Sequence record: MH494197.1
Reading direction: 5' to 3' (one strand)
Origin: Escherichia phage CMSTMSU
DNA length: 64,000 nt
The notes beneath the pieces are model-generated. The model saw only the letters and a list, made by a program, of their open reading frames with translations, ran no database searches and was not told the origin of the DNA. The position numbers were made by a program, and so were the translations under genes. Of the stretch, positions 12,570 through 24,431 are shown in pieces. Numbering within the stretch: the first letter of the stretch is position 1; every line of letters starts with the position of its first letter.

Positions 12570-14010
12570 TTACATATTTTCTTCAGCAAATTCTGCCAGT
12601 GGTGAACGAACAACACCTTCTAGTTCGATTACACGACAACCGTCCCAGTTCTTGAACTTCTCGGTAACATAAGTTAGACCGCTGTTTACTGGACTAATGA
12701 ACTTAGAGTCAATCTGACTCAAGTTACCCATAATAACCACTTTACAGTTCATTCCTGCACGAGTCAAGATTGTTTTGCCTGAGCAGGTGTGATGTTCTGG
12801 AATTCATCAACTACTAGGATAGTATTTGTGAAAGAACGACCACGAACGAAGTTTAGTGCTTTGAACTGGATAACATTGCGTTTCATGATTTCTTCGATAC
12901 TGCCTTGTGGGTTAGCATCATCTTTGTGTAGGAATTCCAACGCATCAATTGCTGCACCACAGAAAGGAATCACTTTCTCTGCTTCAGATCCGGTAAGAAA
13001 CCAATGTCTTCGAATTGGGAATCTTGTGTTTTGGAGAAGATGATACGGTCGTATTTTTCTTCTCTAGTACTAGCTCAGTGCAGTTGCAATAGTGATTAGT
13101 GTTTTACCAGTACCTGCTGAACCTAACAGTACTGTTAGATGAACATCAGGATCTAAAATACTGTTGATTGCTAGTGCTTGCTGAATATTCTTAGCCTTGA
13201 TATCCCACACTTTAGCACGTAAAGCAACTGATTGTCCAACGTCTTGGAATACAAGAATATCTTCTGGTGTTAAAGTACCATCATCTTCTTCAATTGCAGA
13301 TTGACCTTCGTACACAAATAGAACATCAGCATTATCATATAGGTAATCACCGATGCAAATATTTTGTGGCATGATATGTTCAATCAAGCTTTTGGAATGT
13401 AGTGGTACAAACGACGACCAACTTGTTCAGACTGAATAGATACATCAGTCAGATTACTATACACATCCCAGAAATGTAGATCAAGGTGATGTTGACCAAT
13501 GTGAATCAAATCACTATCACCAATCACGATATCATGACGGTAATCTTGAACTTCCACCCCGTAGCTTAGAGCCTTGATACGCATATTGATATCACGGGTA
13601 ACCAGTACTGAATCAGTTGCTAATGCTACTAAAATGATTTTATCATCTGGTACTGTGCTTTTTAGAAGAGTTTGAACTTTCTCTTCGTTACCAGCAGTAC
13701 GAATTAGTGCTTCCGCTTCTTCGCTTGTAATAACAAACAATTTGCTTTCAGGACTCATATTAGTATGAACATCAGCAATATTAACACCAGTACTACTAAT
13801 TTCTTCATGTGATGCATCAGAAAGGATAGCTTCAATGTTACGGATTGCAACACGAGCATCACGGGAAACATCCACATTACGACTTTTGATTGAATCCAAT
13901 TCTTCAAGTACTGTGAACGGTAGAATGATAGCTGCTCCATCAAAAGCAATGGTAGCATTTGGATCAGATAGTAGTACGTTTGTGTCAATTGTATATTTTT
14001 CATAAAACAT
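12570..14010 (-). CDS. phoH: PhoH-like ATPase with N-terminal PIN domain (frameshift-fragmented)
   Basis: Walker A GSAGTGKTLITIAT; PIN-like N-terminus DTNVLLSDP ... TVLEELD; fragments 13384-14010, 13070-13387, 12764-12973, 12570-12767. Confidence 0.8.
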
Positions 14011-14678: not shown

Positions 14679-14833
14679 TTTAAACTCCTATAGATAGCTG
14701 ATTAGTAAGTTTTCTTTTTGTACAAGATACTCTAATTCTTGTTTCGCAGTTCCGATGAAGTTCTGTGTCATAAGATTATTATATCCTGCTTCTCGATTTT
14801 GTCCCTTCGAATAACGAGAGATGTGACATAAAT

Positions 14834-15238
14834 TTACACCAGCCACCTCTGCACTAGCATGTTTGCCATATGCATAATTATCACGAAGTTTTTAAGTTCA
14901 GCATAAGTCATTTCATAACTATAGCTATGTGAGTGACCCTCTGGAAACAATTCAAGTGATTTTAATGGAGACAGGCGACTTTTGTCAATGATATAGTTCA
15001 TTTCTTCTTGAACTTCACGCTGTAACGCATCTTCTAATGACTTATCAGTACTTTCAACTGTTCCACCACATGCACCCAACAATCCATCCCAACGCACTTG
15101 TAGGAGTACTAAGTTAACCACTGGGATATCATTTAGTTCATAACCAGCGTATGGGGTACATTCTTTTGCATAAAAGAAACAGAATACAAAATTTGCACGT
15201 TTCCCCATTTGCCCCAGTGGTACTTCCGCTTTACTCAT
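14834..15238 (-). CDS. possible Nudix-like hydrolase
   Basis: GGTVESTDKSLEDALQREVQEE resembles a Nudix box but spacing is non-canonical. Confidence 0.3.
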   Translation of the reverse strand: MSKAEVPLGQMGKRANFVFCFFYAKECTPYAGYELNDIPVVNLVLLQVRWDGLLGACGGTVESTDKSLEDALQREVQEEMNYIIDKSRLSPLKSLELFPEGHSHSYSYEMTYAELKNFVIIMHMANMLVQRWLV

Positions 15239-15307
15239 CGCATTCGTTCCTTAATTATAGTTTCAACCTGTGGAATTGCTTTCGTCGCAGGTTTGATGAC
15301 CTTCTCA

Positions 15308-15709
15308 TTAAAAGAAAATCATTATCATTTTTCGGATGTTAACATTTACACTATAGCATGGAAGTGCACCAGCTAGTCTGGACCATACCAGTACTGTATC
15401 ACTACTTCCAATAACTACAACTGTATCATTTTCTGTGAGACTTTTCAACACTTCATTTCGTTCTTCATAAATGGGGAGACGTACCCCATCAACGTAGCGA
15501 TGATACTCACCAATCATCACTACATTTGGTTTTGCAAAAACATCAGCTTTAGGAATATATGGTTCATAACCACAATTAATGACATTGTAATCATCAGTAT
15601 TAATAGAAAAGTTCTCAATTACTTCACATAAATTGCCGTGTAGTTTGAGTTCGGTTCCACCAATTCTAGTATATAGATCATCCATATTAGAAGTCATGTG
15701 TAAAAACAA
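15308..15709 (-). CDS. hypothetical protein
   Basis: 133 aa ORF. Confidence 0.3.
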   Translation of the reverse strand: MFLHMTSNMDDLYTRIGGTELKLHGNLCEVIENFSINTDDYNVINCGYEPYIPKADVFAKPNVVMIGEYHRYVDGVRLPIYEERNEVLKSLTENDTVVVIGSSDTVLVWSRLAGALPCYSVNVNIRKMIMIFF

Positions 15710-15900
15710 TCACCATACAAATCTTCTAATGATTTAATAAAGTAATGCATTTCATTAGGATGACATTCACCTAATTTTACACGCAATGTATTATAAAATG
15801 AATGAACTACATGATACTTAGAACTAAGTCGTGCAATGTTACAAACATCATTAATTTTGAAATTGTCCCACAACCCATCATCAAAGCGGAATGGTTCCAT
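15694..15900 (-). CDS. hypothetical protein
   Basis: 68 aa ORF, may extend upstream by frameshift. Confidence 0.25.
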   Translation of the reverse strand: MEPFRFDDGLWDNFKINDVCNIARLSSKYHVVHSFYNTLRVKLGECHPNEMHYFIKSLEDLYGDCFYT

Positions 15901-16214: not shown

Positions 16215-16804
16215 TCAGTATTTCAAAATATCAAACTCTGGACTAACACTTGTTACATTATCACTAACAATTTTGAAAATAGACTCAACACGTTCATGTA
16301 ACTGAACATTGGTTTCTTCTTGAACTTCAATATACGCTGACATGGATGCAATTGCATGATAAGTCCCACTTCCGACAGCAGTAATTTGTGTTTTAGGTTG
16401 CAGTACTGAAAAGTCTTCTTGAACTTCATAAATCGTATGATTATGAAGAATAATGAACTGACCACCACCAACATCTTGTGATGCATCACGAGCACCCATT
16501 CATCTTTAAACATTTGACGAATGATAGGAATAACTTTCAGTACTAGATACTGTGAAAAGGTTTCCTGCAACTTGTTCTGGTAGAGTTAGGTTGTAATTCA
16601 ACAACTGTCCCATGCGGAACGAGGTAGTATACCCAACGCCATTACTTCTTTAGTGCGAGAAAGACCATCCTCATTGAGTTTAATGAACTCTTTCTCAAAC
16701 ACTTTAGGCTCAGTTTGAACTGCTTTAGTGAAACCATTGCTTCCTAATTTATCACCAGCGATGAAGGAAGATGTGCCATTTGTGTGAGCGATAATACAAG
16801 TCAT
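16215..16804 (-). CDS. HslV-like Ntn-hydrolase peptidase (frameshift-fragmented)
   Basis: N-terminus MTCIIAHTNGTSSFIAGDKLGSNG parallels HslV [24 protein letters not shown] with Thr2 nucleophile; C-part ITAVGSGTYHAIASMSAY parallels IAIGSGGPYAQAAARAL. Confidence 0.55.
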
Positions 16805-17070
16805 GAAATAACTCCTTGTGCAAAAGTGCCGTATACAACCAGTATATCAGCAACCCTAGTGTAAGTAAACATGCTCCATAAGAAATTGATAGAACATAGT
16901 AAATTCCTGCTTCGAACTTGGATGCAAATTTGTGTGTACTGGAATCCATAAAACCACGTTTGTAGTCTTTATAGATGAAACATGTTAAAACTAATGTAAT
17001 GCAATATACTATAGTTGTTGCATAAAAACAAGAGATGTTAAGTTTTGTAAATTTGTCATAGTTTATACAC
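16752..17070 (-). CDS. predicted membrane protein
   Basis: ORF 16752-16949 with hydrophobic helices, N-terminal extension in another frame. Confidence 0.3.
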
Positions 17071-17150
17071 TCTAGTGTATGTGAACTTATAACAAAGGAT
17101 GTACCACTTTATCATCCTCTTATTATAATATTATTATTTTGTATCTAATA

Positions 17151-17522
17151 CTAATGAATGATACTACCTAATTCGAGCAACTGATCTGGTGTAAGTCTCA
17201 CAACTTCATTACCACGAACCTTACTAACCTCCACTAACAATTCTGGAGGAATACCATTCGCTGCATATAACGCAAATAGAACACCAACCTTAGTTGATAG
17301 CTGTTCAGCAAAAATAGTCATTTGGCGAACTGATATGTATGTGTCATCACTATTTCGTGCTTTACTTTCGATTGACACATTATGTAGACCTAGAATTGAG
17401 TCCTTCATCATGTATCTGTTTTCTATATTAGCACTAAAGAATGCGATAGTGCAAGAAGAATTACAATATCTTTCAACAATAATTGTTAAATTGTTATCAT
17501 TGACAAAATTTCCTAGTGCCAC
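17151..17522 (-). CDS. hypothetical protein
   Basis: 123 aa ORF. Confidence 0.3.
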   Translation of the reverse strand: MALGNFVNDNNLTIIVERYCNSSCTIAFFSANIENRYMMKDSILGLHNVSIESKARNSDDTYISVRQMTIFAEQLSTKVGVLFALYAANGIPPELLVEVSKVRGNEVVRLTPDQLLELGSIIH

Positions 17523-17880
17523 TCCGCATCAAAATCACCACCGTGACGTAATGATGATAGTGTCAAATGGGTGTGTTTCTCTAAAACCATCAAACGGTTT
17601 ACAGTATTTTCAGTTAAAGTTGAAATGAACTGAACTGTCTGTTTAGATTCATCATATCTAATGATACTTTTCTTTCAACACCTGCACTTGCAGGAAAGTT
17701 AATTAAGAAAATAATAATAATAGATTGGATGATTTCTTTACATAATCGTACCACTGGTTAACCCTCTTAGTTGATTGTTGATTACATAAATAATATTATA
17801 GGAAGATTTAACTTAAGTCAAATTGTTTTTATATCACTTCACAAATTCCCTCACAGAATCACCCGCCTTTTTACCTTCTT

Positions 17881-17910
17881 TTGAATGATTATATCACACT
17901 AATGTATAAT
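17881..17910 (+). promoter_or_regulatory. sigma70-like promoter candidate on plus strand
   Basis: TTGAAT - 18 nt - TG TATAAT in a roughly 400 bp gene-free intergenic region. Confidence 0.25.
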
Positions 17911-18003
17911 GTCTATGCTTTTGTCAACAAATAACGTGGTAGTACTGAACTCGTTGTTGGTTCTAAGAGTTTTCCTGAAATTCAAACAAGTTGTGTACTA
18001 ACA

Positions 18004-18030
18004 AAGAAAAAGGAGCCTTATGGCTCTTTT
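18004..18030. terminator. bidirectional terminator-like hairpin
   Basis: GAGCC-ttat-GGCTC stem flanked by A-run upstream and T-run downstream, at the 3' end of minus gene 18035-18295. Confidence 0.5.
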
Positions 18031-18034
18031 TATT

Positions 18035-18295
18035 CTACGTATTAAGTTTCTGACAAATCATGTCAGCTTCAACACGGTCTTTATAATAAATGGTAAAACC
18101 AAATTTACCAGTTACTTTATACTCTTTACAAGTTAAACAATTTACAATGTAGTACTTGTTGTTTTGTGCTGAAAATCGTACTTCATGATTACGCATCACT
18201 GGTGGAGTAGTATTATCATTTAATACCATCATCACTAAGAGTACAAGAATCACAACTGCAAATGGAATACCTAAAATCAAGAAAGTCAAAGTCAC
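18035..18295 (-). CDS. small membrane-anchored protein
   Basis: 86 aa, N-terminal transmembrane helix, GTG start overlapping the cd stop. Confidence 0.4.
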   Translation of the reverse strand: MTLTFLILGIPFAVVILVLLVMMVLNDNTTPPVMRNHEVRFSAQNNKYYIVNCLTCKEYKVTGKFGFTIYYKDRVEADMICQKLNT

Positions 18296-18767
18296 AACCC
18301 CTTATCATAAATGCAATTTACAATAATCCCAGCATCTTCCAGTACTTTAATAGCTTCTGGTGGAGTGCGAGGATAACTTTGTGATAAATCACGCGAGCAA
18401 TACCACTTCCCGCGATCAACTTAGAACAAGTATAGCATGGTTGCAGCGTTGTGTAAAGTGTTGCTCCCTGACGTTCGGTAGGTGAACTGTATAACAATGC
18501 ATTCATTTCAGCATGGATTTCATGGATATTACTCCATTCATGGTGTTCATGCTTTGCGTCATCGCTAACCCAGTCTTGGAAACGTCCACCATTAACTAAG
18601 TGCTCATTAGCGTCACAGCAGTTAGGTTGTTTAGATGGAGTGCCATTATAACCAGTACTCAATACTCGGTTATTTTTAACAATAACACAACCAACTTTCT
18701 GTGAAATGCATTTACTCTCTTCAGCCACGACTTCGGCTATCTTCAACCACGTCAAGTGTTTCATCAT
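18292..18767 (-). CDS. cd: deoxycytidylate (dCMP) deaminase
   Basis: ESKCISQKVGCVI, STGYNG, HAEMNAL and PCYTCSKLI zinc motifs with a T4 Cd-like insert; C-terminus frameshifted. Confidence 0.8.
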
Positions 18768-19085
18768 ATACTCCTAGGGATTGTAATTTGGTTTTACAGT
18801 TCGAATGTATTTTAAGAACACGAAGGTAGTTTAGCACATCTGATTCTTCAATGTCAAATGGTTTCGCTGCATAAACGTCCCATGCTCCCATTAATTCTGT
18901 ACAGAACTTGATATCACCCGAACCCAGCAACTTGTCACGGAATTGTTTAAACTCGATTTCTTCATCGGATAATGAAAACCCAAATCCATAAAGCACATAC
19001 CACCAGCACTGAAGCATGACCCAGATGATGTACCAATTAAAATATCATCCATCCCATATAAGCCGTAAAAATATTGGAGTACCAA
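18721..19085 (-). CDS. hypothetical protein
   Basis: overlapping ORFs 18891-19085 and 18721-19017, probably one gene. Confidence 0.3.
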
Positions 19086-19246
19086 GTACTAAGTTTACTT
19101 CGGTGATGATATTTAAGAACATTCTTCTTGATATTTACATCTAATGAATTAGCTGTTGATATCACTTTTTGGTTAAAATAATAGTTTTGTTCAAATTACT
19201 CAACCATACTTTAGTATCAGTTGGGCTAAGAGCAGTGTATTTCATA

Positions 19247-19612
19247 TTAATCCTCTAAATTCCATTCATCAACCATAGTTGAGCATAATTCCATGTGTCG
19301 GAAATATTTCTCATTAAGTGAATATGGACTCTTATAAAATTGTCTTACATCAGTGAATATATCATAGTTTCTATATATAAATGACATATTTTTATTCATG
19401 AATTCTATAATCTTCCATAACTTTTCTGTATCGTTTTGTATAGTTTCTGCACTCAATCCCGTCAATTTCATTAGACGCTTGATTTTAAAGCCAGACTCTA
19501 TTGACGTATTGTTATGCTTGGTTAAGTAACTATAGCCAATGGAACTATATATTAGTTCAATACTATCAGTACTGGTTATTGTTCCTAGAAATGATTTTAA
19601 ATTTCTATTCAA
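19247..19612 (-). CDS. hypothetical protein
   Basis: 121 aa ORF. Confidence 0.35.
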   Translation of the reverse strand: MNRNLKSFLGTITSTDSIELIYSSIGYSYLTKHNNTSIESGFKIKRLMKLTGLSAETIQNDTEKLWKIIEFMNKNMSFIYRNYDIFTDVRQFYKSPYSLNEKYFRHMELCSTMVDEWNLED

Positions 19613-19881
19613 CCAATACCATTTTTGTTCTTGTTATAGCAAGAATACCACTTTTAACTATAGCTATTGCCTCTGAATTTAAACTTTCGGCAAATTCATC
19701 AATTAAAACATGTGATTGTAAAATAAATCACTTTGATCTTCAGATAATTTATATTGCTGCATATCCACCTACCCTATTAACAATTACACCTTGGGTATTT
19801 ACCTTGTATGGATCAATTTTTGATCAATAATTTTTGATATACAGCAAATAAAATGGGAATCATTAAAGATTCCCTAAGTAA

Positions 19882-20656
19882 TTATTTCTGGAATGGAGTG
19901 TACTGGTACTGCTCACAATCAGATACAGTTAGTACACCTTCATCATAACCGTACTGGAGAATAAGATCAAATGCTTTATCAACCATAGCTACAACGTCTT
20001 TGTAACGAACGATGGTGTGTGCCTGTTTCTCAACTGCTTTCATAATACCCATCAGCATCCAGCGGCCTTCATCAGTGTGAAGTTTAGCAAAACGAGGACG
20101 TTTAGTTGCTGCCATAATGTCAGTCCATTCTGCTTTAAACACTGATGGACGTTTAGGAATATCATACAGAGTTGTTGGGAATGTTACGTTGTTTTTCTTC
20201 ATAGCTTCAGCTTGTGCAGCACGATAACCTTGACGGAATAGTGGGTGCTGTGATTTTAGCTGTTCATTGTTAAAAACTACTTTGTTTTAAACGCGTCATA
20301 ACCTTCTTTGTATTGTGCATTAGACATATTATTCTTTCCCTCGTCAGTACTGATGAATTTTTTATCTGAGAATGTGCCGTGTTCTTGACGCATAGCTTCT
20401 GCGTGTTGAACTGCGTTAATTGGATTAATGTTCTTTTAATAAGAACTTCTTGCATTAATTCGAGAACAATAGAAAAACCATTGAGTACTCGTTCTGCCTC
20501 GTCAACACCTTTCAATTCAATAGCCACTGCACTAATCTGATCTAATGCGGTATTAATAAACTCTGAATCATCTAACACATCATTGACTTCAGTATTATTA
20601 CGTACAAGAACTTTCATATAATCTCCAGAAATAAGATGCCCCAAATGAGGCATCAA
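19882..20656 (-). CDS. hypothetical protein(s) (frameshift-fragmented)
   Basis: ORFs 20270-20656 and 19882-20202 joined by readable sequence in alternative frames. Confidence 0.3.
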
Positions 20657-20668
20657 ATGAAATTCAAA

Positions 20669-21363
20669 TTAGACCCACTCTTCCACGCCACCGCGACGTT
20701 TGACGAGATACTTACCTTCTTCGTTGCGTGGACCAAGGATGATACCATCAATGAAACCATGTTCACCGTATTCGAGTGCTTCTTCAGCGTTCAACCACAA
20801 GTCACGGTCTGCATCTTTCAGTAGTTGTTCGTGCGATACACCAACTGCTTCAGCAATTTCTTTCGTCAATAGTGTGTTCAATGCGTCAGAGTGTTTCAAA
20901 GAAATCTTCTGATCGGTAATCAGACCCTGAGTACCGGAACTCACTTGGTGACACATGAAGTAAGAACGCTTACCACCTAGACGGAAACCTTTAGTTCCAA
21001 CTACTGATTGTGTATAGCAACCCATTGATGCTGCATAACCCATTACTACTGTACGGATAGGAGATACACAAGACTTAGCAATGTCAGCGATACCCAAACC
21101 TGCGTGTACTGAACCACCGGAGAACTAATGTAGAAGGTAATTGGTTCAGAACCCTGAGAATCCAACCACACCAATTGTTGCTTGATGATATGTGCCATTT
21201 GGTCATTGAAGTCAGTATCAAGGAAAATGATACGGTCTTGCATCATACGAGATGCTAGGTCATAAGTACGTTCTGCACCATTAACTTTTTCAACTACATA
21301 AGGAATAGAAATGTTGCGAACTTCACCACCAGCATAACCACCAAAATTGAATTGTTCAACCAT
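20669..21363 (-). CDS. clpP: ClpP-like ATP-dependent protease proteolytic subunit
   Basis: GAERTYDLASRMMQDRIIFL, YISSP and GYAASMGCY match ClpP; a 1-nt deletion near 21100 splits the frame. Confidence 0.8.
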
Positions 21364-23016: not shown

Positions 23017-24431
23017 TTAACCGAGTGATTCAAGAATACTATTAGAGAACACCTCAACAGCACTATCACGAATTTCTAAGATACGAGTATAGTCGTCACA
23101 GGTGTTTTTGTCAAATCTAAATTCAATAAACACTGGTAAAAATAGTGATGGCTCACCAGTACGCTTATCGAATACAATATCATTGCACTCTACGGTCACT
23201 ACTTGACCAATGAGTTCTTGCATTCTTTCCCAAATGGTTTTAAACGTCCATTCTGCGTCTTTCTCTTTAATTCCAGTACCTACATTAACTTTCAATGTAC
23301 CACAAGCACTTTCCAGTTGTAAAGAACCAAGGCTACCTTTACGCTTACCTTCACCTTCATTGAAACCAACAATACGCAAGTCCAATTGCATTTTAAGTTT
23401 CATTTTCAATTGCTTAGGAGAAGTGTGAGATTTCCAGATACCATCTTCACATTTCAGTACTGAACCCTCTTCACCTTCGTTCATTAGTTCACTATTGTAC
23501 TCAAATGCTTCTTTGATGTTTAGAACTTTACGGAATCCAACCATACGAACAAAATCACTACCGAGTTCGTTAATTGCATCTACTAAGATCTCGCGGCGTT
23601 CTTTGCGTTTTACATTCCATACACCTTCACAAAATGCATCATATGGAACAACATCCCAGAGAACGAATACAGTACGCATTGCTTCATTCTGACTGATGCT
23701 ATCTTTACCAGCTTTCTGAATGATACCGTTACCAGTAGTGCGTGGGAGAATGGTTTCTCCATCATTGTCCAGTACTACACCTTCACCCATAAAGACTACA
23801 CCACTACTAAAACGTTCATCTTTACTTTGGATGATGTGAGCAAGACCTGCCATTTCACCATCACGACAACCCGAAGTCGTATAGTTTGCCATTACGGGAT
23901 GTAGAAGTTAATGAACCATTAATGACAACGTGGTTCAAGTACTGACCATCCATTTTAACTTCTGATATAGCATAACCATAATCTTTGAAGTTAATGTTCT
24001 TTGCAGTCTTTTGTCAATCAAAGAACAACGCATGTATGGTTCGTCTTTGATGAAACCTTTCCCGAACACATCATTACAGTTCTTTTCTTGGATACCACAA
24101 TCAAGGTTCTTCGTGAGCATTTTACGAAGAACTTCTTGGTCATCTTCTGATACAGAACCCAGTACTGAAGCAATGAAGTCACGTCCAGCATTTCCGGTCA
24201 CACCACGTTTGTAAATGCATTCTAGCTTATCAATTGCTTCGTCTAATGTCATATGTTGGTATAGATCATCAGCTTGTGGTAGCTTTTTATATCCACTTAC
24301 AATTGAAGGGTCTAGTGTATATTTCAGTACTTTTTGTAATGTTTGGTTATCTTTGTTTTGTTCAAGGATAGCTTTTTACCCAGAGTACTGCTAGTATTTT
24401 TAATGCTTTCAAGAATTGCTAAAATGCTCAT
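23017..24431 (-). CDS. ATP-dependent DNA ligase, T4 gp30-like (frameshift-fragmented)
   Basis: N-terminus MSILAILESIKNTSSTLGKK, KMDG nucleotidyl-transferase motif I, EGSVLK motif, about 471 codons; fragments 23935-24252 and 23017-23892. Confidence 0.85.

Follow-up and report, generated by a model that had tools for sequence, protein, structure and literature searches.

The 64,000-nucleotide stretch of Escherichia phage CMSTMSU analysed here (MH494197.1, hereafter the window) carries three protease-like genes: an HslV-like N-terminal nucleophile (Ntn) hydrolase of the proteasome family, a divergent gene with a Clp fold, and a homologue of the peptidase ClpP. The explanation that we favour, with a probability of roughly 55%, is that they encode three non-morphogenetic proteases amid nucleotide-metabolism and host-takeover genes transcribed in one direction, that ClpP works with ClpA and ClpS proteins made by the phage itself, and that the HslV-like hydrolase, for want of a dedicated unfoldase gene in the phage, would act by itself or with help from the host, for example from HslU. 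ClpP would most likely assemble with the ClpA-type double-ring unfoldase, docking through the IGM loop of the latter, and a ClpS-domain adaptor would steer ClpA-ClpP, the outcome being a phage-encoded ClpAPS protease active in the infected cytoplasm. The middle Clp-fold protein, in which Ser and His are retained, is probably exported or membrane-anchored. A first-pass annotation of this DNA had reported an HslV-like gene and a ClpP-like gene; open reading frames and alignment to intact relatives place both where it had put them, on the minus strand. Both are real, but the third protease-like gene, which lies between them, had been overlooked.

The window comes from an Asteriusvirus, an Escherichia coli jumbo myophage of ~350-380 kb belonging to the PBECO4/121Q/phAPEC6 group and kin to the wider Rak2-like jumbo phages. 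A 6-kb query centred on the protease region matched 40 phage records, eight of them with full-length identities of 97.6-98.6%; all eight are Escherichia phages, and the records examined closely (vB_Ec-M-J, PBECO4 and phAPEC6) are classified as Asteriusvirus. The nearest relative is vB_Ec-M-J (OQ718158.1, 378 kb, 98.6% identical), the whole genome of which was surveyed for context; its genes are designated EcMJ_.

Compared with vB_Ec-M-J, the whole window (1-64000) contains 297 deletions and 15 insertions, chiefly single bases in homopolymers of at least four, and nearly every gene is frameshifted, essential ones included. The HslV-like gene consists of open reading frames of 68 and 94 amino acids plus a middle piece, with homopolymer deletions near 16494, 16563 and 16631, and a DNA alignment with two relatives traces every break to loss of G from a homopolymer (GGGG shortened to GGG or GG). 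The ClpP gene is broken once, by a single deletion near 21118, and its two parts match the intact 231-residue relative with 100% identity. Since a viral structure library holds entries of 94 and 68 amino acids identical to both HslV-like window fragments, the source record apparently has the same frameshifts. We regard the frameshifts, on the pattern of their sequence, as assembly errors bearing the signature of unpolished long reads and not as gene decay, and protein analyses were done on the intact proteins of relatives because the window copies are frameshifted. The interruptions, which number three, four and one in the HslV-like, Clp-like and ClpP genes respectively, could also be genuine, marking the protease genes as decaying pseudogenes. 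We consider the chance of this next to negligible: the excess of deletions is concentrated in homopolymers and runs across all genes, the ClpP pieces and, throughout its alignment to vB_Ec-M-J, the HslV-like DNA match intact relatives outside the indels, and all relatives carry intact copies.

ClpP is recognized by the Pfam CLP_protease model (PF00574) with E = 1.3e-41 and 142.9 bits (gathering score, 20.2) over profile positions 2-179 of 182. Among solved structures, roughly a hundred ClpPs match it (best E = 3e-36), and it is 37% identical to E. coli ClpP. The NCBIfam models of cellular ClpP give lower scores than their cut-offs (TIGR00493, 153.3 bits against 308.6; PRK00277, 156.4 bits against 249), and we take the protein to be a member of the family but a divergent paralogue, under the equivalog cut-offs. 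The catalytic Ser-His-Asp residues, which the first-pass annotation had left for confirmation, proved to be intact: S113, H139 and D188 align with the S97/H122/D171 triad of E. coli and are invariant in five phage ClpPs. The N-terminal axial-loop motif (P-x-V-V-E...ER) is kept, following an extension of ~18 residues, and a C-terminal tail of ~20 residues is common to phage ClpPs. Identity is 96-100% within Asteriusvirus and 66-74% in RaK2, GAP32 and CBB. These features point to a catalytically intact barrel subunit of the cellular type.

Searching the rest of the genome for AAA+ partners, as had been proposed from the window alone, changed the interpretation of this gene. A full-length ClpA is encoded in vB_Ec-M-J by EcMJ_316 (762 amino acids; OQ718158.1, 168677-170965), which has two AAA+ modules and a ClpB_D2-small domain, keeps both Walker motifs and both pore loops (KYRG and GYVG), and is without the ClpB middle domain. 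The ClpA equivalog model TIGR02639 covers it at positions 5-733 of 734 with 751.6 bits, which is still under the NCBIfam equivalog cut-off, and the structure of E. coli ClpA (1KSF) matches residues 17-741 with its residues 20-734 (E = 5.6e-178). The ClpP-docking loop reads RSIGM, compared to KSIGL in E. coli ClpA; in the ClpAs of other Rak2-like phages it reads IGV (RaK2), LGM (GAP32) and IGF (PA5oct), that is, [I/L]-G-hydrophobic. The gene is the lone plus-strand gene between minus-strand tail and baseplate genes and adjoins the gene for a virion protein of 3,323 amino acids.

The ClpS-domain protein is EcMJ_400 (181 amino acids; OQ718158.1, 252760-253305), labelled merely 'ATP-dependent protease' in the record. 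Its matches among solved structures are all ClpS, both with the single sequence and with the family profile (ten of ten for the profile, E = 3.3e-5, residues 20-90). The single sequence stays under the Pfam ClpS cut-off (15.6 versus 23 bits), while its homologues carry PF02617 and one of them is a ClpS-core protein in UniRef. The family-invariant pocket differs from that of E. coli ClpS by N34D, M40A and H66N, with D35 and T38 retained. In E. coli ClpS, M40A relaxes N-degron specificity. Judging from these residues, the phage adaptor may read another set of N-termini than E. coli ClpS.

The three genes have matching distributions. Among the Rak2-like phages within the 50,697 phage records searched, the numbers of ClpP, ClpA and ClpS genes per host genus are 33, 32 and 33 for Escherichia, 10, 11 and 10 for Klebsiella, 8, 10 and 8 for Salmonella, and 8, 8 and 8 for Erwinia. 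No ClpX- or HslU-like gene was found by tblastn in the vB_Ec-M-J genome or in the window with E. coli ClpX and HslU and the D1 and D2 modules of the phage ClpA as queries; the search returned ClpA and weak matches of clamp-loader type only. Of the PADLOC defence-system models, none matched the three proteases or ClpS, and those that matched ClpA were generic AAA+ models. The vB_Ec-M-J genome also encodes two GroES-like proteins, a fragment labelled Hsp70 and a homologue of IF3, a broad proteostasis and translation toolkit.

The first-pass annotation had suggested that the peptidases could co-opt host HslU or ClpX. On this model they would be orphan cores that capture host unfoldases, ClpP with ClpX or ClpA and the HslV-like protein with HslU, and so redirect the ATP-dependent proteolysis of the host. 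The lack of a phage ClpX or HslU homologue in the genome and window surveyed is in line with this model, as are the conserved axial-loop motif of ClpP and the suggestion by Iyer et al. 2021 (PMC7824862) that jumbo-phage ClpP serves an anti-host role. An orphan ClpP borrowing host ClpX was nevertheless not borne out: the lineage encodes its own ClpA with a docking loop, and ClpS, both distributed like ClpP, and the ClpP pocket departs from that of the host at positions conserved across the phage clade, in which a C-terminal tail is also shared. The existence and co-distribution of ClpA and ClpS are observations; from them we infer the physical pairing of the components. A phage-encoded ClpAPS is the most economical account of these data, and host capture appears unlikely. 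What stands of the earlier interpretation as a whole is the non-morphogenetic role; for ClpP, a self-contained ClpAPS of the phage is more probable than recruitment of host ClpX.

Several observations weigh against our explanation. ClpA and ClpS come from relatives that are 98-99% identical; their genes lie ~85 kb and ~170 kb from ClpP, outside the window, and the three Clp genes are dispersed and do not form one operon. The ClpA gene is surrounded by tail and baseplate genes, which could hint at a part in assembly. Docking of ClpA is also unproven, given the changes in the pocket of ClpP: of twelve positions that line the IGF/IGL docking pocket in E. coli ClpP, eight are conserved or conservatively replaced, and among the changes Y60T, F82S and L114G are non-conservative and F112L is milder. 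Across the phage clade Y60 is replaced by T, V or K, and L114 by G or T, which could mean either co-adaptation to the phage ClpA or simple divergence. Finally, ClpP was seen in virions of phage CBB (one peptide, 4.5% coverage; PMC5259590), and some distant phages hold relatives of the HslV-like gene inside head modules.

The same pocket changes admit a bolder version of the ClpAPS scheme. With a ClpS whose specificity pocket is remodelled, a ClpA carrying a non-canonical IGM, IGV or LGM loop, and a ClpP with a co-changed pocket and tail, Rak2-like jumbo phages might run a private N-degron pathway insulated from that of the host. Host or defence proteins would then be selectively destroyed without titration by host Clp partners, and the proteasome-like hydrolase would form a second, independent arm. 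We offer this tentatively, as a possibility that is on balance improbable.

The HslV-like protein of intact relatives has 197 amino acids and begins with MTC. In a 35-member family alignment, M1, T2, C3, D18, K34, G146 and G148 are invariant, which bears out the Thr2 nucleophile and GSG motif originally read from the window; without the initiator Met, these residues correspond to Thr1, Asp17 and Lys33 of the proteasome in canonical numbering and to its G-S-G motif. PHROG 1040 ('peptidase HslV family') matches the protein with E = 2.6e-22. There is no Pfam match, the Proteasome model included, and the HslV models TIGR03692 and PRK05456 score 18.1 and 18.9 bits, below their cut-offs of 157.75 and 137. 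A family profile compared with solved structures found HslV first (E = 6.5e-8); next came beta subunits of actinobacterial proteasomes and the bacterial proteasome homologue BPH. The AlphaFold2 model has a predicted local distance difference test score (pLDDT) of 92.4, and in Foldseek searches it matched HslV with E = 3e-10 and TM-scores of 0.62-0.72, and BPH with TM-scores of up to 0.75, at identities of 14-19%. Helices are seen at residues 63-72, 84-104, 149-166 and 170-184, so both helix pairs are present, and the model contains an 18-residue beta-hairpin insertion that is specific to Asteriusvirus. The protein is a distinct branch of the proteasome family and not an orthologue of HslV: the fold and catalytic residues implied by its first designation as an HslV-like Ntn-hydrolase hold, whereas it fails the models that define HslV. 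We predict a catalytically competent Thr hydrolase made without a propeptide. A profile search found at least 8,269 clusters at 50% identity (E <= 0.001), and nearly all matches among the 150 best listed begin at residue 1 of the protein, indicating that the family has no propeptide.

Whether this hydrolase is a protease at all can be asked, as it might be a different Ntn enzyme, such as an amidohydrolase or a ligase like connectase, serving metabolism related to nucleotides or NAD. Genes for PhoH, ribonucleotide reductase, thymidylate synthase, DHFR or ligase recur in its vicinity in four lineages not related to one another (Asteriusvirus, a T5-like phage, a Vibrio phage and a 142-kb phage genome), and PhoH is nearby in the other three as well as in Asteriusvirus. 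The Cys that follows Thr1 is invariant and is absent from HslV, which starts with TTI, and the superfamily is functionally diverse, a ligase included (Fuchs et al. 2021, PMC8665760). Against a non-protease function, the full proteasome catalytic set is conserved and the closest folds are those of the proteases HslV and BPH. The association with PhoH or ribonucleotide reductase was moreover rejected as a general rule, either gene being found within 10 kb in just 5 of 50 metagenomic viral loci of at least 15 kb. We think a non-protease function doubtful.

Homologues of the HslV-like protein occur in 197 phage records, mostly of T5-like Epseptimavirus and also of Vibrio, Aeromonas and Geobacillus phages; proteins with the proteasome fold are found in many other phage groups as well, e.g. 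phages of Gordonia. The two Asteriusvirus clades share 88% identity in this protein. The T5-like phages speak for capture of a host unfoldase: about 150 of them have the HslV-like gene without ClpA, and without ClpP (the search for the HslV-like gene lists 96 Salmonella and 57 Escherichia records, that for ClpA lists jumbo phages only), and any unfoldase partner of theirs would be host-derived. On the other side, the phage protein is only ~17% identical to HslV, and the wider family is present in phages of hosts such as Gordonia that are not known to have HslU. In 80 loci from metagenomic viral contigs, no HslU or ClpX was found within 10 kb of the HslV-like gene, ClpA was found in one locus, and unbiased clustering of neighbouring open reading frames gave no family recurring in more than 14 of the 80. 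For the HslV-like protein these data suggest that there is no dedicated partner encoded by phages, with host HslU as a possible partner for the enterobacterial subfamily.

Some arrangements around HslV-like genes may be recorded here. A protein of ~500 amino acids, WGR-plus-PARP-like by eye, is encoded nearby in 11 of the 80 viral loci (e.g. L049:13140-14639), and in PBECO4 a WGR-domain gene (L002:1251-2222) lies ~6 kb from the HslV-like gene. Vibrio phage vB_VpaM_R16F (139 kb) has two adjacent 'nucleophile aminohydrolase' genes (L011:6001-6989), the first HslV-like at 35% identity, and also encodes a ClpA-like ATPase in which the docking-loop position reads QGM. Some small metagenomic phages show head-module arrangements of two kinds: TerL, HslV-like gene and a fusion of S78 protease and capsid, or portal, HslV-like gene, further genes and capsid (L056:2294-4848, L091:7718-15078 and L088:744-3896). 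A morphogenetic role is possible for these members of the family.

The middle gene encodes a protein that scores 20.6 bits with Pfam CLP_protease, narrowly above the gathering score of 20.2, and matches phrog_26024 with E = 3.7e-70. Its Ser101 and His126 align with the Ser and His of ClpP; the Asp position is not conserved. In all members the N-terminus has a basic stretch, a hydrophobic stretch and a 'PASA-G' motif (...LINFPASA|G), and so looks like a Sec signal peptide, from which we infer that the protein is probably exported or anchored in the membrane. As an exported protease it may be comparable to NfeD or SppA. The family is limited to Asteriusvirus and evolves fast, with 52% identity between clades, compared to 96% for ClpP and 88% for the HslV-like protein. 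No solved structures matched, and the AlphaFold2 model, built from an eight-sequence alignment, is unusable (mean pLDDT 48.7).

All three genes lie in surroundings of nucleotide metabolism, with the following genes placed in the window.

12573..14010, minus strand: PhoH-like gene with an N-terminal PIN-like region, frameshifted; homologue of EcMJ_215
14691-15238, minus strand: NUDIX hydrolase, at lower coordinates than the HslV-like gene; homologue of EcMJ_212
15238-15900, minus strand: Sir2-like gene, directly adjoining the HslV-like gene; homologue of EcMJ_211
16215..16804, minus strand: HslV-like proteasome-family Ntn hydrolase, 197 amino acids when repaired; identified by PHROG 1040, fold and invariant residues
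17151..17754, minus strand: divergent Clp-fold serine-protease-like gene, 202 amino acids when repaired; identified by Pfam CLP_protease and phrog_26024
18289..18728, minus strand: dCMP deaminase, between the Clp-like gene and ClpP; homologue of EcMJ_206
18724..19245, minus strand: homologue of EcMJ_205 (phrog_19307), which is annotated as 'virion structural protein' but belongs to neither capsid, portal nor scaffold
20669..21363, minus strand: ClpP proteolytic subunit, 231 amino acids when repaired; identified by Pfam CLP_protease and the catalytic triad
23020..24431, minus strand: ATP-dependent DNA ligase; homologue of EcMJ_197

A metallophosphoesterase gene is also among the flanking genes. 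The window copy of the gene at 18724..19245 is heavily frameshifted, and its apparent identity to EcMJ_205 is 63%. No portal, scaffold or capsid gene is present in the stretch of the relative equivalent to the window, and the description of the neighbourhood as one of nucleotide metabolism free of such genes is accurate (PhoH, NUDIX, Sir2, dCMP deaminase, metallophosphoesterase and DNA ligase genes flank the proteases). In the PBECO4/phAPEC6 clade, a plus-strand gene for a 14-kDa virion protein (phAPEC6 gp347, 75% coverage by mass spectrometry) stands beside the Clp-like gene (L002:9815-10192 and L003:4815-5192); it is missing from the window (about 17760-18035) and from vB_Ec-M-J, a clade-specific indel.

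Several GenBank records label these genes as head-maturation enzymes, and a role as prohead proteases is an alternative to the non-morphogenetic one. In its favour, PHROG 94 ('head maturation protease') recognizes ClpP (E = 9.5e-44), and the CBB peptide and the distant HslV-like relatives that adjoin portal or capsid genes could be cited as well. The PHROG 94 match, however, is due to the shared fold: on the model of ClpP-related head-maturation proteases, NF045542, ClpP scores 51.1 bits against a cut-off of 120, compared to 153-156 bits on the cellular models. The head module of vB_Ec-M-J, at 200-206 kb, consists of genes for the portal, a virion protein, a 206-residue 'head maturation protein', a gene in scaffold position and the major capsid protein, and the 206-residue protein is a Peptidase_S77 of the T4 gp21 type (E = 8e-21). 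The three protease genes are at 82-87 kb in OQ718158.1 (ClpP at 82 kb), ~115-120 kb away, and thus do not turn out to sit beside capsid genes in a full genome. Mass spectrometry of phAPEC6 virions picked up the S77 protease gp227c together with the capsid, scaffold and portal proteins; gp345c, gp346c and gp353c, the homologues of the three protease genes, are not in the virion proteome (PMC7247149). Even where an HslV-like gene lies in a head module, at locus L056, it stands alongside a canonical S78 protease-capsid fusion, and the HslV-like protein was rejected as a candidate prohead protease for this phage. A prohead function is therefore very improbable, in agreement with the first-pass annotation, and the 'head maturation protease' labels on these genes are wrong.

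The distribution of late promoters agrees with this conclusion. The exact T4-type late-promoter motif TATAAATA has no occurrence in the 64-kb window, where 11.8 ± 3.4 are expected. It occurs ten times in the 378-kb vB_Ec-M-J genome, and nine of these sites lie 20-55 bp upstream of start codons (OQ718158.1 positions 185532, 191577, 204075, 205284, 215443, 259850, 294864, 318844 and 320086), including those of scaffold, major capsid, baseplate-hub and virion-protein genes. Exact matches alone were considered, because a scan allowing one mismatch gave 994 matches genome-wide and was uninformative. By these counts TATAAATA, which is of the T4 late-promoter type, is strongly avoided, and its absence is compatible with non-late expression of the window genes. 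The distance from the head genes is an observed fact, as are the identity, catalytic residues and fold of the gene products; the time of expression and the substrates of the proteases are conjectural.

The genes themselves are already known. Dozens of public genomes annotate them, GenBank entries such as those for 121Q, Sharanji and GAP32 use the names ClpP, ClpA and ClpS, and no fewer than three papers mention them. Attai et al. 2018 (PMC6102473) reported ClpX, ClpA, ClpB, ClpP and ClpS genes in a Rak2-like phage, with ClpA conserved across the group; Iyer et al. 2021 (PMC7824862) drew attention to the ClpP and ClpS of jumbo phages as probably directed against the host; and Fuchs, Alva and Lupas 2021 (PMC8665760) catalogued the phage-borne proteasome homologues PPH, AAH and CPH. 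Our literature search found no experimental study of a phage-encoded ClpP, ClpA or proteasome homologue. Added here are the checks at residue level, of the docking loop, the ClpP pocket and the ClpS pocket, and the observation that the three genes are distributed alike among phages. If a phage ClpAPS and a proteasome-like hydrolase degrade host or defence proteins, host takeover, and perhaps counter-defence, would gain a level not described before, and the altered ClpS pocket would be a natural experiment in N-degron specificity. Of practical value are the correction of 'head maturation protease' labels produced by automated pipelines and the flagging of the record MH494197.1 as full of homopolymer frameshifts.

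Among known systems, E. coli ClpAPS is the closest counterpart of the proposed machine. The likeness extends to a full-length ClpP with its triad, a ClpA that aligns end to end and has the docking tripeptide, and the core domain of ClpS. The differences are considerable: identity is low and all three proteins fall under the NCBIfam equivalog cut-offs, the genes are spread over ~170 kb and are not linked as clpS-clpA, the docking loop is IGM and not IGL, the ClpP pocket is changed, and ClpP has a clade-specific C-terminal tail. Compared to its E. coli counterpart, the phage ClpS has extra N- and C-terminal regions in addition to N34D, M40A and H66N. The Clp genes in the records of the Rak2-like phages 121Q, Sharanji, GAP32 and RaK2 are the same genes, and nothing substantive differs.

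The HslV-like protein shares with HslV (ClpQ) the Ntn fold, a Thr1 exposed on removal of Met, Asp17, Lys33 and G-S-G. It differs in being ~17% identical, in its invariant Cys2 and beta-hairpin insertion, and in having no adjacent or phage-encoded HslU. It resembles more broadly the phage-borne proteasome homologues (PPH, AAH, CPH; PHROG 1040) as a compact protein of the group-I type without a propeptide in tailed phages, but at 197 residues and with both helix pairs it is unlike PPH, which has ~140 residues and is without helix H2 (PMC8665760). Head-maturation proteases of the T4 gp21-type S77 and ClpP-related groups are, like the proteins described here, encoded by phages, and the latter group has the ClpP fold in common with them. 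The true S77 enzyme of this lineage is a separate gene of the head module, whereas these three lie in a nucleotide-metabolism block and are not part of the phAPEC6 virion.

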